From: Hormiphora californensis
Taxonomy: Eukaryota > Animalia > Ctenophora
Reading direction: 5' to 3'
NCBI GenBank assembly: GCA_020137815.1
Contig: CM035359.1
Coordinates: 62,001 to 126,000, forward strand
DNA: 64,000 nt
A model generated the notes under the pieces. The model was given only the letters and a program-made list of their open reading frames with translations. It was not told the origin of the DNA and made no database searches. Made by a program: the position numbers and the translations under genes. Below, piece after piece: positions 5,601-58,800 of this stretch; positions within the stretch are counted from its first letter, which is position 1, and every line of letters begins with the position of its first letter.

Positions 5601-8600
5601 CGTGTATTATAATAGGTCAAAGGCTTGAATCATGACTATTATTAGTGGCTCGGGGTTCCAGAAAACCAGGCCCAGCTGAAATAACAAATCATCTCTCTTT
5701 CCATATCTCCCCTTACATTATGAAGTTTGTAGTAGAGTCCACAGGCATTGCACACCACCTCCCCCAGATTATTCCGTCTCCATAGTGTGGTTGAGTTAGT
5801 GTTACAGTTGGTACATTTTGAACTTCCTGTGAGAGATAAATAGTTCAATAAACAGATCAGCGAAGTAGGGGCGGGTTGTATTTGGGGTAAAACCTAATTC
5901 ATGGACCACCCTGTAAAACCTAATTCATGGACCACTCTGGATACAGCTGCACTGTGTTTGGAGTAAATTTAGCGCACTAATCTGTAAAATGTAGTTCTGT
6001 GCTTACCGATGTGTTGTTTGGATGTTTTCCGACGTTTCGCTGAGCTCGACATGTAATCCTTGTACCGAAACTCTCCATTAATTGACCTGGAGAAAGAAAC
6101 CATATAATTATGACAAATCCAGCTCTAATACGTTGCATCAAGAATAATTATTGTTGTGTACCAGAAACCGACCGAATCAGGAAATACTGGTCCCTGATTG
6201 GCTGATAACCAGTCACGTGACCTAAATAACAAGTTCTGAGTGGTTTTTACTTGTGTCGGTCGGTTCCTGTTGTGTACATAAAACTTAAAACTACTTGTGA
6301 GAGTGGATCCAATTTGGATCGATCGATATTACTCGACAAAACACCAGACAATTTCTCAATCTGTTAAATCACAATTAGTTCTCACATGAAGGAATTGGGA
6401 GCGTTGTTTTGTGTTGTCTGGCCGGCCCCGGGGGAGGAACTCGGTGATATTGTTGTTATTATTTGGGGTTGTTGCGGAGGTGAGGTTGCCAGGGCAATGG
6501 GATGATGCTGGACCAGTTGCGTCATAGTTGTGGAGGGAGGTGGTGCGGGGATGAGTTTTCGGTGTTTTGGCGCGGAGTCTACCACCTGGAGAACAGATTG
6601 AATTAGCATCGGGTTTGCTTCTTTGTTAAAGACGTTAGGAACCTGGGATCGGTAATGTGGTAAAACGGTAGGAAGTAGAAACCAGAATTTATCTCCGGAC
6701 TCTATAGCACGTGTACTAGACATATACCTGGGCAGTTTGGGCGGATAGGGCAATATCCACTAGCAATTCTGCCATGTTATTGATTCCGTTTTCCTCGCTG
6801 AGATACTTGGAAAGGAGGGATCCGGCCCTTTGCAGTACCTAGTTAGGGAGGTATCTTGTATTACTTTGTAGTTAGGGAGATATATGATTTTAGGGAAACA
6901 AGTAGCCTTGGGTACGATGTCCACTCTCTGTTTGGGGTAGCGTGCACGACATCGTGCGAGAGAGGACAGCGCAGGAGGGCCAGAAGAGAGGGGATATATC
7001 ATACCCAAAAAGGAGTCTGAGTAGGAAGATATGTTAGGCAACGGATAGTCCGTGATAAGCAAGATGAAAATATATGCTATATTTCTCTCTTTGGAAAAGT
7101 GGCGCAACAATTTTACCGACCTCATCGCTGATGCCTTTGTTGGTGATTTCACTTCCAATAGTTGAGAGGTCCCTCAACAGACCAGGATCATTCCTCATGG
7201 GTAGGGGAAACCTGCACGGTGGTATGAAGGGAGAAATAAATCTAATTTTGTGTGGCTGCTGCAAATATATCACGAAGCTGCTTACAATCCACTTGACAAG
7301 ATATAATATATTGATAAACATACCTCAGTAGACTGTTCTGGTAAGAAAGGTGAAGGTTAGAAGCTTGCTTACTCCTGATCCCACTATTTCCAATCACCAC
7401 GACAGGAGAAGCAGTTGGTATCACTGCGGTACTCCTGCATGTGGTAGTGATAGAGGAAGATGAGGTTCTAGCCGTTGGAGCTGCTGTCGATGTACGGAGG
7501 ATAACGTGAGAGGTTTTGGAGTGGTCGGGTGTTACTTTGTGGACGGGTGAGGTTTGCCGGCAGGATTGTTGTTGTTGTTGCCCGCGGGTTATCATCCGGT
7601 TGGCGGGTAGTTTTGGTTGTCCAATGCTCACCACTGTCCTATTAGGTGGAGGAGGCGGTCCTCCGAGGGTGATACTGGGTATCGGGACATGATTCAGGCT
7701 GGCAATCCCACCAGAGGGTACAACACGGACTTGGTCAACACCAGAGGAGGGGACATTTCGTGACGTCGTTATGACGTCACTACCAGACACTGTGACGTCA
7801 TTACCAGAGACTGTGACAGGACGTTGGAGGTTGATGTCACCTGGCGTGTTGCCAATTTTCATCCTCTGTCTGATGCTCGAGACAGTCTTGACGTTTTTGT
7901 CTGGGAGGAGGAAGAAATGAGGTAATATTGGAGGGTTCCATTTGGAAGCATCTTTTCAAAAATATGGAATTAGGTGGTGTTGTAATTCCTGGAATGTTCA
8001 TTTTCCCAGTACAGATCGTTTCTAGAATTAATTAGGTTGTCCCAGAGTAGAGATGAGAGAATCTCTTACTACCAGTTTCCCACAAGAGTCCGGTAAATCG
8101 ATGTTTGACCCTCAATTTCCCCAATCTCTAATTAATGTACTTGTCCGCCGGCCGCCAGACAATTTCCGGCCCTGGCTCACGGCAACCCGGCGGATCAGAA
8201 CATAACTCACCTGTACTACAGTTGGTGTCCAGTGTGTCTAAAATGTCTTGAATACCAGGGTACTGAAGCAGAATATCCAAAATCTCATTTGGTCGTTCCT
8301 CTATGTCCTGGAGGAGATCATTCGCCACCTGCGATAAGTCACTGTCTGAGTGATAATATATAGGTGTGTGGGAGTGTGTGGGGGTATACCATGTATATAT
8401 GTTAGTGTACACACACACAGACACACACCCCCTAATTTATCTCTTCTCCTGTATGAGGAGAATGAGAAGAGATAAATTAGGGGGTGTGTGTGTCTGTGTG
8501 TGTCTGTGTGAAGTACAGCAGCAATTGTGTGGATAACAACACAATGTGATGAAAACATTGAACGTTTGTGTGTATGGTGAGAGAAACAAGGTGTGGTTTG

Positions 8601-56815: not shown

Positions 56816-58800
56816 CTGTGTGTGTGTGTGTGTGTGAGAGAGAGAGAGAGAGAGAGAGAGAGAGAGAGAGAGAGAGAGAGAGAGAAGGGGAGCTATCATG
56901 TTGTGCTATCGTTACAAGGGTTTATTGAATTGGCTCAACTTAAATTCGCTCCCAACAATCGTGGGTGTGTGTCGTGTGATTTGGCTGAACTTGATCAAGT
57001 TTCCCTGAAGATTGGAGAAATGTGAGAGAAAGAGAGAGAGAGAGAGAGAGAGAGAGAAAGAGAGAGAGAGAGAGAGAGAACGAGAGAGAGAGAGAGAGAG
57101 AGAGAGATATCAAATGATTAATCCAGGAAAAAACGATGAAATGACACTACGGATGCGGGGAAGTGACGAAAGAAAAAAAGACATTACTTTTAAATCGTAG
57201 CAAAAAACATTTTACTGGTCTAATGGACACCTGCTTATAATATCGAGATAAGAATCAGACACACCAAACCAGCCTCTCATCACAGATATATATCCCCCCT
57301 GTGTCTCCCAGTTGGTAGCTGTGGTGGAAACAGGGTTGAGAATGTTGAAGCCACCAAACTGTCTAGTGTGTTTGTGGTGTGAACACTGTCAAACCAGCTA
57401 CCTATTATATCTCGTCAGGAAACTCCCTGCGGTGTATCGCTACAAAGACAACAGCTACCGTGCTTAGTAGTTCGGACATTCCAAAACGGTTACCAAATTC
57501 CACAGATGGCGCTATGTAGTACCATGGCACCCCGATTTAGCTTTGTTTTCCTTCTCCGACAAAGAAAAAGAGCGCTATATATTTGTCAACACTCGACCAT
57601 CTCACTTTGGAAAGGAATCCTGGAACTAAAAAGGAACCGCCTAATGAACCTTCAGCCAAGAACCGTCCGACACAAGTAAACAAACAATCAGAACTCGTTA
57701 TTTAGGTCACGTGACTGGTTATCAGCCAATCAGGGACCAGTATTTCCTGATTCGGTCGGTTCCTGCCATCAGCCAAGATCATTAGCCTGGTATCGGTACT
57801 TTGGAGTAGATTTTAGGTAAAAAAGAACGATTTCAAAACAACTTACGGTTCTTTTGAACAACAAGATGCATTTCTCGGCATCTATTACCGTTTTTACATA
57901 TTTTGTAGTTACATAGAGAGAGAGAGAGGGAAAGAGAGAGAGAGAGAGAGAGAGAGAGAGAGAGAGAGAGAGAGAGAGAGAGAGAGAGGGAGAGAGAGAG
58001 AGAGAGAGAGTGAGAGAGAGAGAGAAATATATTCAGAGCGTCAATTTTCGTTCTATTGTTCACCATCCCCCCCCCCTATATGACAAGTGTGATATTTTGC
58101 ATCTAAGTGCAATTTATAAAACATATTTTACTTATTGATAGCAAACGCCCAATGACATCAGAATGGTAGTAATATGTTACGTTTATTAAGACATGATGGG
58201 TCCCGTGCGTCATACAAGGTGATGAATGCATAATTATTACAGGGCTTGCTTGATTAGGTAGTACTGTATACTGAATTGTGCGGCAACGTTCATTGTATAC
58301 ACGCCGAGAAAGGAGCTGCAGCTATGACTCAATTCTCTCTTACATATATCCCTCTTTATATCTCTCACCCTCTCAATCTCTCTATCTCTCTATCTCTCTC
58401 TCTCTCTCTCTCTATCTCTCTCTCTCTCTCTATCTCTCTATCTCTCTATCTCTGTCGACCAAGACAATGGAAAAATAAACAATCCAAAACACACGGTCTC
58501 ACGTATCGTCACTTCGTCTGTACACATCTGATTCATCGAGAGCTCATTTGAAATATACTTTTGACATAATATTGATGATTCTTTTTTCACCCAAATTGTA
58601 AATCAAATCGTATGGTTCCAAGCCCTCATTTTAGAGTGAATACACACTATTTACACATACACGCGCCGTAGCAGTTTTAATTCAAACAGACCGTCCACGA
58701 GAAGGCTATTAAAGAAGTTTGCATGTGTAGAAGAGAGAGAGAGAGAGAGAGAGAGAGAGAGAGAGAGAGAGAGAGAGAGAGAGAGAGAGAGAAAGAGAAA
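56816..58800. repeat. Cluster of (GT)n/(AG)n/(CT)n microsatellites (~56816-56886, 57024-57107, 57915-58025, 58370-58452, 58732-58798)
   Basis: Direct inspection. Confidence 0.85.
57657..57765 (+). mobile_element. MITE-A copy 13
   Basis: TSD CCTTCAGC / CCATCAGC (7/8 match). Confidence 0.9.

Follow-up and report, generated by a model that had tools for sequence, protein, structure and literature searches.

A 109-bp MITE clustered at intron starts in ctenophore DNA is likely steered to exon ends

Analysis of a 64-kb stretch of ctenophore DNA (the window) revealed a 109-bp MITE that clusters at the start of introns and is likely steered to exon ends, where the harm it does would be slight. All 13 copies were recovered where the first-pass annotation had placed them (Table 1), and 10 of the 13 lie in the 64 modelled introns, in three unrelated host genes and, as it had described, in both orientations (seven sense, three antisense). 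Nine of the ten intronic copies start no more than about 26 nt from the donor. Five start at exactly +8, and in four of these the duplication is intron nt 1-8; both figures stood when recounted over the modelled introns. The distances from the donor, in table order, are 116, 9, about 17-28, 8, 8, 8, 17, 8, 8 and 12 nt. Nine of them agree with the earlier values, and the remaining one, only approximate, belongs to a 5'-truncated copy (27914) in which homology begins at 27935-27940. The claimed lack of mid-intron copies did not hold, since the copy at 6162 lies at +116 of an intron that is 183 nt when empty, and the copy at 57657 may be another (+81, given a putative upstream KLF first exon) or may be intergenic.

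Table 1. Copies of the 109-bp MITE, one orthologous empty site and the host genes in the window
Feature	Position	Strand	Remarks
MITE copy	6162..6269	-	Mid-intron, +116 in GATA intron 7; flanked by perfect 8-bp duplication
MITE copy	8901..9009	+	+9 in GATA intron 2, antisense (gene on minus strand); adjoins TA-type MITE, duplication degraded
MITE copy	10281..10389	+	1 nt past TatD stop codon (minus-strand gene); duplication unclear
MITE copy, 5'-truncated	27935..28022	+	Dynactin intron 13, about +17 to +28
Native donor (29075-29082) and MITE at +8 (29083)	29075..29191	+	Dynactin intron 16; right-hand duplication unmatched (2/8)
Donor = duplication (30428-30435); MITE 30436-30544	30428..30552	+	Dynactin intron 18; copied donor 30545-30552, 7/8 match
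Donor = duplication; MITE 33975-34086	33967..34094	+	Dynactin intron 23; copied donor at 34087 perfect, outscores native donor
MITE copy	37546..37654	+	Dynactin intron 26, +17
Donor = duplication; antisense MITE 40291-40404	40283..40412	-	EFR3 intron 2; perfect copied donor at 40405
Donor = duplication; MITE 41520-41628	41512..41636	+	EFR3 intron 5; perfect copied donor at 41629
MITE copy	44293..44401	-	EFR3 intron 9, antisense, +12; perfect duplication = intron nt 5-12
MITE copy	53425..53533	+	Outside modelled coding, ~800 nt past KLF stop; perfect duplication
MITE copy	57657..57765	+	Upstream of modelled KLF exons; 7/8 duplication
EFR3 intron 12, empty here	46872..46979	+	Orthologous model P0046 carries a copy
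Host gene, dynactin p150	20367..39230	+	30 exons, 1,469 codons, no internal stops; 5 copies
Host gene, EFR3	39753..49509	+	17 modelled exons; 3 copies
Host gene with GATA-type zinc finger	5719..9950	-	2 copies

The element is short and non-coding, with TIRs of 14-18 bp and a hairpin (z=-5.5), and it is homogeneous, occurs in high copy number and has empty sites, all of which are features of a MITE. Each copy differs from the majority sequence by 1-8 substitutions, and no further copies above noise were found in the window. Both ends open with an acceptor-like CAG/G and the 3' terminus is TG. Rfam gave no match over the element, and the SINE and structured-RNA readings were rejected. Matching contigs numbered 14,084, 27,071 and 26,846 in X1, X5 and X7, respectively, with the depth heaped on three copies. 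A translation of the MITE is contained in 559 of 591 candidate proteins; hundreds of the public 'sb/' gene models (559 matches) carry it and are probably mis-predicted. Pattern scans found the element in two metagenome contigs only, with three copies, one in a 3' UTR outside the window (L001) and two non-coding, and the viral and prokaryote collections scanned contained none.

The 8-bp duplication annotated for the family is present in eight of the 12 intact copies, matching 8/8 in six and 7/8 in two (30436, 57657), and fails in the other four (at most 3/8), which include the +8 copy at 29083; some ends may have been shifted by secondary rearrangement. At the outside loci, two of the three copies have 10-bp duplications matching 9/10 in place of 8-bp ones. 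A second donor had been noted about 117-122 nt downstream of the native one and was found at 117, 120, 122 and 117 nt; use of each of the four reaches a stop, as had also been stated, the hosts being of phase 0 or 2. By intron phase the ten copies divide into seven in phase 0, three in phase 2 and none in phase 1, the sole phase in which an intact sense copy is stop-free, whereas phase 1 makes up 21/64 introns (Fisher p=0.023, post hoc). The predicted proteins showed no enrichment of a phase-1 read-through signature.

Intron starts carry nine copies per 1,664 nt, compared with two per 20,934 nt outside modelled genes (three if the stop-adjacent copy is included), a roughly 55-fold higher density. 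Selection alone is insufficient for such an excess, because it cannot lift density above that of neutral DNA. The host introns measure 99-2,363 nt when empty. Their length had been stressed earlier, and other repeats partly account for the long ones, so the null models use core intron lengths; the donor-proximal excess holds with these. Under motif plus selection, 0.06-0.6 copies are expected at +8 with flat or protein-derived motifs and 0.5-1.8 with a strong GT..AC motif, against the five observed, which bears out the view that more than the target motif is needed to account for the pattern. The probability of five or more at +8 was 7e-10 to 5e-3 in per-host-intron nulls and at most 2e-6 in nulls spanning whole introns; the harshest model gave 0.005-0.03. 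With a strong GT..AC motif, the first 40 nt only and introns pooled it was 0.03 for 5/10, or 0.05 with an 11th copy, and all nulls save the 40-nt ones and one 120-nt pooled null (3e-4) gave P of at most 1e-5. The sample is ten intronic copies from one window plus one copy inferred from a predicted protein. A second MITE family, also intronic in 10/10 copies and often near either intron end, showed no spike (0/10 at one position). Exon edges as general duplication hot spots were rejected, boundary-spanning local copies being found in 6/64 introns compared to 5/55 in the mid-intron control.

The intron set comprises 64 GT-AG introns from six hand-built gene models, and the host exon ends have support from open frames, alignments of EFR3 and a single spliced RNA contig. 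At EFR3 introns 2, 5 and 9 they are gapless in alignment to relatives of 58-63% identity, and mis-called ends were rejected for these three; the EFR3 model has a frameshift near 46808-46831. A homologue search with dynactin gave no match, and its junctions are based on a frame that stays open for 1,469 codons, a weak Pfam signal that continues across intron 17 and one RNA joint, that of intron 26, which is spliced in RNA run X10. As the seven contigs of X10 are mostly below 90% identity, their source is a relative and they are uninformative on use of the copied donors. The junctions of the third host gene, whose zinc finger we take to be of GATA type, follow from frame continuity alone. An empty site corresponds to copy 37546, where organism B (X7) is 118 nt shorter and the intron is still present. 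Outside the window, the EFR3 orthologue model P0046 runs through the intron-12 donor into a MITE copy after 14 nt, and the same donor has no MITE in the window sequence.

Genome-wide, the evidence on duplications consists of the majority letters of loose-end rows only. These give the target motif nTnnnnAn, with majority rows resembling CTATATAG; GT..AC is common, as the GTnnnnAC-like preference annotated earlier implied, but the motif is not strictly GTnnnnAC. The same motif is the target described for Hermes (available parts of PMC10512250 and PMC8721813), and the preference is seen both in the loose-end majority rows and in protein flanks, where A stands at duplication position 7 in 54/105 protein-inferred flanks compared with 26/105 and 29/105 at control codons. 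A hallmark of donors is G at position 5 (48% of the 64 donors vs 18% intron background). Duplications starting with GT are donor-like in 3/6 consensus rows: G is the majority letter at position 5 in three of the six GT-conditioned loose-end rows, and one row (53 contigs) spells the full donor consensus. In simulation the G5 pattern would arise without donors at P=4e-4 (5 rows). Three rows have A rather than G at position 5, namely the GTT row, the GT-conditioned row from organism B and one sense row from organism A, and in one small row (15 contigs) AG precedes GT. At position 1 the unconditioned majority rows have C, A or G. Among predicted proteins containing the MITE, a flank set biased towards mis-predicted exonic copies, the implied first duplication base is G in only 27/137 right flanks, and Gly at the -3 residue shows no excess (9/105 vs 6.4% background).

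We put at about even the chance that a high-copy cut-and-paste MITE of hAT or P type is biased to the 3' edges of exons, its motif then snapping onto the donor GT. The transposase, supplied in trans and of hAT or P type, would favour accessible DNA beside exon-positioned nucleosomes, and the insertion zone would be the 3' edge of GC-rich exons; GC falls from 47% to 38% across donors, and the median internal exon is 124 nt. Within this zone the invariant GT would be the best motif match, and a staggered cut there would duplicate intron nt 1-8 and leave the native donor intact, adjoining the exon. Mirror insertions on the acceptor side and insertions into exons would be purged by selection, because the upstream duplicate would draw the element into mRNA. 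The copied donor would be a mostly unused by-product, and in introns of phase 0 or 2 its use would lead to premature termination. The copy 1 nt past the TatD stop codon, which the annotation had correctly noted, fits a coding-edge cue over a splicing cue and, together with the second MITE family, favours a chromatin cue, or one common to exon edges, over U1 or the spliceosome.

The pattern could also arise with no positional targeting, if the nTnnnnAn/GT..AC motif alone chose the sites and selection or faster loss cleared copies elsewhere, with the CAG/G ends exonising deep copies, and with protection for copies whose distance from the donor is below the minimum length of an intron. We consider this explanation and its mechanism rather unlikely. 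It demands the loss of nearly all intergenic and deep-intron copies, even though each copy has diverged from the majority sequence by just 1-8 substitutions. The mid-intron copy 6162 persists with a perfect duplication, other MITEs are tolerated deep in introns, and copies of the element are retained in a 3' UTR. A high indel rate in non-exonic DNA of a related ctenophore (available part of PMC8527503) would help such loss, the 0/10 phase-1 hosts hint at splicing-level selection, and P climbs to 0.005-0.05 given a strong motif and the first 40 nt only. Human and mouse intronic TEs very near exons likewise favour donors over acceptors, which is ascribed to selection, but there selection yields depletion near exons, in contrast to the 55-fold enrichment and one-base spike of the MITE (available part of PMC3088655).

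Direct targeting of 5' splice sites, with the donor read in DNA beyond the eight duplicated bases or through a U1 or splicing tether as an evolved safe harbour, seems quite unlikely to us. Its appeal is the base-exact spike of 5/10 at +8, sharper than in the control family, together with the donor-like majority rows genome-wide and the 15-contig row with AG before GT; sequence reading alone leaves the +9, +12, +14, +17 and about +25 copies unexplained, an RNA tether alone would not be expected to confer base precision on DNA, and the stop-adjacent copy has no donor there. No transposase, with or without an extra domain, was found in the window. That a transposase recognising 5' splice sites, by DNA reading or through the splicing machinery, placed thousands of copies with the donor as duplicated target, a safe harbour at splice sites, and seeded alternative donors 117 nt downstream throughout the genes of a ctenophore is unlikely. 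It is very improbable that the window merely over-represents donor-proximal copies relative to the genome: the pattern is post hoc and from a single window, and the unconditioned genome-wide rows have no consistent G at position 1, but P is at most 1e-5 with the few exceptions given above, the three host genes are unrelated, and the donor-like rows and P0046 lend support from outside the window.

P-superfamily elements have CA..TG ends, a feature common to the 109-bp MITE; P and Galileo use GT..AC target palindromes, and P elements are known for inserting near promoters, not near donors. Dada elements are site-specific DNA transposons with a low-harm target, multicopy small-RNA genes recognised by sequence, whereas the target of the MITE is non-exclusive and is defined by position within ordinary genes. 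Ds-made introns and those of Huff et al. 2016 are reportedly parallels to introners. We know of no hAT that concentrates at intron starts, and our literature search found none; nor did it find an account of this MITE or of donor-targeted MITEs, in a search that missed most subscription papers and Repbase. PMC2586383 had no content bearing on the question. Non-autonomous hATs of the Hermes/hobo type share short TIRs starting from CAG and the T2/A7 target (available parts of PMC10512250 and PMC8721813); their 8-bp duplication compares with 8-bp ones at eight of the 12 intact window copies and 10-bp ones at two of the three outside copies. The CA..TG ends and the duplication length also fit the P superfamily (7-9-bp range), whose BuT5-like MITEs share an 8-bp or variable 8/9-bp duplication but are much longer (PMC3698922, available part). 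Judged by its ends and duplication length, the element would match P type equally as well as hAT.

Introners resemble it in being TIR/TSD MITE-like, with splice signals in the duplication; for introners a nucleosome-linker insertion bias is reported and proposed as the mode of insertion. They differ in that they insert into exons and constitute the intron, whereas the MITE lies within older introns and makes no new one (available part of PMC9860276). The empty host intron lengths, the TG terminus and the persistence of the intron at the empty site led us to reject an introner reading. In the available main text of PMC9860276 ctenophores are unmentioned, and P. bachei has at least one supplement entry, in the genome list.

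Intronic transposons are normally depleted beside exons, and a roughly 55-fold enrichment with a one-base donor spike is the reverse. If positional targeting is true, the MITE would serve as a natural marker that locates exon edges in chromatin to the base, and as a plausible half-way state towards introners, with splice signals in the duplication and no intron yet. It would also provide, in an early-branching animal, a large stock of duplicated donors for the study of proximal-donor choice and NMD, and possibly a low-harm integration tool.

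Motif scan, BLAST and profile search returned identical sets of 13 copies of the 109-bp element in the window, with no weaker copies above noise there. Against 64 hand-modelled introns, 10 of the 13 copies were placed in introns as the first-pass annotation had stated, at +116, +9, approximately +17 to +28 (a 5'-truncated copy), +8, +8, +8, +17, +8, +8 and +12 from the upstream exon end. The five copies at exactly +8 were borne out by the modelled exon ends, and at four of these sites the duplication corresponds to intron nt 1–8, perfectly at three and with 7/8 matching at one; at the fifth the right-hand duplication had no match. 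The earlier statement that mid-intron copies are absent does not hold, given the copy at +116. The copy said to adjoin a stop codon is located 1 nt beyond it, and two copies are outside modelled coding regions, one possibly at +81 of a putative KLF intron. The distribution of the copies is real and strongly non-random. Empty sites, which had been proposed as a check, were represented by a contig of organism B that crosses the +17 site, with 50 nt compared to 168 nt in the window. This is an empty site within a pre-existing intron, so the element is not an introner and that reading was rejected.

The six gene models were built by hand and snapped to GT–AG with open frames, and the phases of EFR3 introns 12–16 were corrected from a relative. 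Mis-called flanking exon ends had been named as a possible source of error; in EFR3, three host junctions were gapless in comparison to relatives of 58–63% identity. One dynactin host junction (37528 to 37841) was joined in a contig of X10, an RNA-like run from a relative, and the two GATA host junctions were called from the reading frame alone.

Features of the window and of two outside metagenome contigs (L001, L002)
Feature	Position (window unless stated)	Detail
Dynactin model		30 exons; no internal stop
Other models		EFR3, GATA-type factor, TatD, HMG-like gene, two KLF exons
TatD-like nuclease	10391-14076 (-)	Fused to long Pro-rich and RSPPR-repeat N-terminus
EFR3 exon 12 frameshift	46808-46831	Relative to P0123 (a relative), close to C run; probably an assembly error
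Homopolymer-rich stretches	55600-56500, 62700-63400	Apparently low-quality; KLF 5' part not modelled across
Control MITE, copies 1-5	8720-8891, 10674-11532, 11855-11952, 23826-23859, 25896-25972	
Control MITE, copies 6-10	27679-27800, 30616-30690, 30870-30925, 33702-33744, 46042-46214	
Inverted-repeat element, ~1.4 kb	32181-33600	Dynactin intron 22; begins ~75 nt from donor
Inverted-repeat element, ~1.1 kb	44533-45653	EFR3 intron 9; begins ~250 nt from donor
Exon end and splice site tandemly copied into intron	26148-26290, 31557-31660, 48377-48450, 20581, 41281, 46207-46386	No commoner than at mid-intron control (window introns)
Short inverted repeat flanking the 53425 copy	53404-53574	Copy near its middle
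Element interior (example)	37546-37654	Palindromic GTCACGTGAC E-box between two CCAAT boxes; AATCAG three times
Outside element copies	L001:966-1098, L002:214-342	10-bp duplications (9/10 match), not 8-bp

The element is a MITE with terminal inverted repeats of 14–18 bp; individual copies are 1–8 substitutions away from the majority sequence, and the element folds through its ends (z=-5.5) and matched no Rfam family. The CCAAT, E-box and AATCAG features of its interior may represent subterminal repeats bound by a transposase, or else a cassette resembling a promoter. In three DNA runs 14,084, 27,071 and 26,846 contigs matched one 5.1-kb stretch of the window, with the depth heaped on three element copies; the element is very abundant, and extrapolation gives about 30,000 copies for a genome of 156 Mb if the window density holds. 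Its single open frame was present in 559/591 candidate proteins and in 918 cluster representatives, and among the element-bearing candidates listed 119 of 120 were 'sb/' models, which we take to be Pleurobrachia bachei gene-model names. P0046 is one such model, and from its 53/53 match to an EFR3 exon of the window the sequence probably belongs to this ctenophore or to a close relative. The translated element occurs in hundreds of public 'sb/' protein models, often repeated within one model; these are probably gene-prediction artefacts contaminating protein databases. The L001 copy is in the 3' UTR of a transcript that we take to be V-ATPase c-subunit-like. Judged from ends and duplications, hAT and P-type would both fit: the nTnnnnAn target and the 8-bp duplication of part of the copies, two outside copies having 10 bp, would suit hAT (excerpts of PMC10512250 and PMC8721813). 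P-type MITEs have CA..TG ends and would be equally compatible, with duplications of 8–9 bp (excerpt of PMC3698922). The literature, with Repbase and most subscription journals outside its scope, gave no account of the element or of donor-concentrated MITEs.

Use of the copied donor, the second donor made by the duplication, is predicted to lengthen the mRNA by 117–122 nt and to reach a stop in every copy, at codon 1–19. In a phase-1 intron, a complete copy in sense orientation is predicted to contribute an open stretch of 39 codons. The distance, the stop and the 39 codons agree with the earlier proposal. Splicing at these sites is a predicted use. With a 64-donor matrix the copied donors scored 5.2, 10.7, 6.5 and 6.8 bits compared to 7.1, 9.7, 6.8 and 8.7 for the native ones, so two are competitive. 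None of the 10 host introns was in phase 1, against 21/64 introns overall (p=0.023, post hoc).

Insertion guided by a target motif and shaped by selection, without positional targeting, was weighed with a motif estimated from data outside the window. Where outside contigs leave the element, position 2 has T and position 7 has A as the majority letter. Of 105 distinct flanks from 169 predicted proteins, 54 have A as the middle base of the codon that precedes the element, against 26 and 29 at control codons. The target suggested earlier as GTnnnnAC-like reads nTnnnnAn, with GT..AC common but not strict. Its first base was implied to be A in 36, C in 33, T in 28, G in 27 and other in 13 of 137 right flanks. 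Flat, protein-derived and purposely strong GT..AC motifs were combined with whole empty introns, their first 120 nt or their first 40 nt; these nulls gave 0.06 to 1.8 expected copies at +8 against five observed, and GT preference alone is insufficient, in agreement with the annotation. Per host intron, P(≥5 at +8) was 7e-10 to 5e-3; solely the strong motif with a 40-nt zone and all introns pooled gave 0.03 (0.05 with an 11th copy), and that motif is partly circular because donors feed into it. We regard motif and selection by themselves as unlikely, and direct recognition of splice sites as still less probable. Intron starts, 1,664 nt in all, contained 9 copies, compared to 2 copies in the 20,934 nt that lie beyond the modelled genes. 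As a positional control we used a MITE with TA duplications, presumably Tc1/mariner-like. All 10 of its copies in the window were intronic, none being outside genes, and their donor distances were spread (6, 19, 57, 95, 109, 127, 188, 442, 1,595 and 2,242 nt), with two copies ≤15 nt from acceptors and several ≤20 nt from a donor or acceptor.

Further evidence came from outside rows of majority letters (24 of 947 listed, six conditioned on a duplication starting GT). Among those listed, G was the majority at position 5 in 3/6 GT-conditioned rows and in 1/9 unconditioned ones; one GT-conditioned row, of 53 contigs, reads as a canonical donor, and the organism B row lacked a majority G there. G is at this position in 48% of 64 donors compared to 18% of intron bases. 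Simulation of five GT-conditioned rows, omitting the GTT row (donors are rare there; position 5 is A), gave P=4e-4 without donors and was compatible with about 20–60% donors among GT-starting targets, a hint rather than a count. A merely local effect of the window is very improbable; outside it, P0046, a predicted protein related to EFR3 with 53/53 identity to an EFR3 exon, runs through the intron 12 donor and into the element after 14 intron bases, at a site that is empty in the window; this is evidence at the level of protein rather than DNA.

We give an even chance to the explanation that an exon-edge positional cue and the target motif together guide insertion, with selection giving the donor/acceptor asymmetry. 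The spike at +8 would call for the motif and the shoulder from +9 to about +26 for a positional cue. The copy next to the stop codon is compatible with an edge cue acting without splicing. Exons have 47–49% GC against 38% at intron starts, and the median internal exon is 124 nt; this step and length would be as expected from exon-seated nucleosomes. Introners have been linked to insertion in nucleosome linkers (excerpt of PMC9860276), and Hermes to nucleosome-free DNA (a title cited in PMC10512250). An edge cue would be expected to give insertions on both exon sides. On the acceptor side the upstream copy of the duplication would keep the branch point and the element would be pulled into the mRNA, whereas on the donor side the exon's own donor would stay first. 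Selection against acceptor-side insertions would then leave the asymmetry, as has been argued for mammals (excerpt of PMC3088655). The positional bias is probably real, and we infer the agent that guides it.
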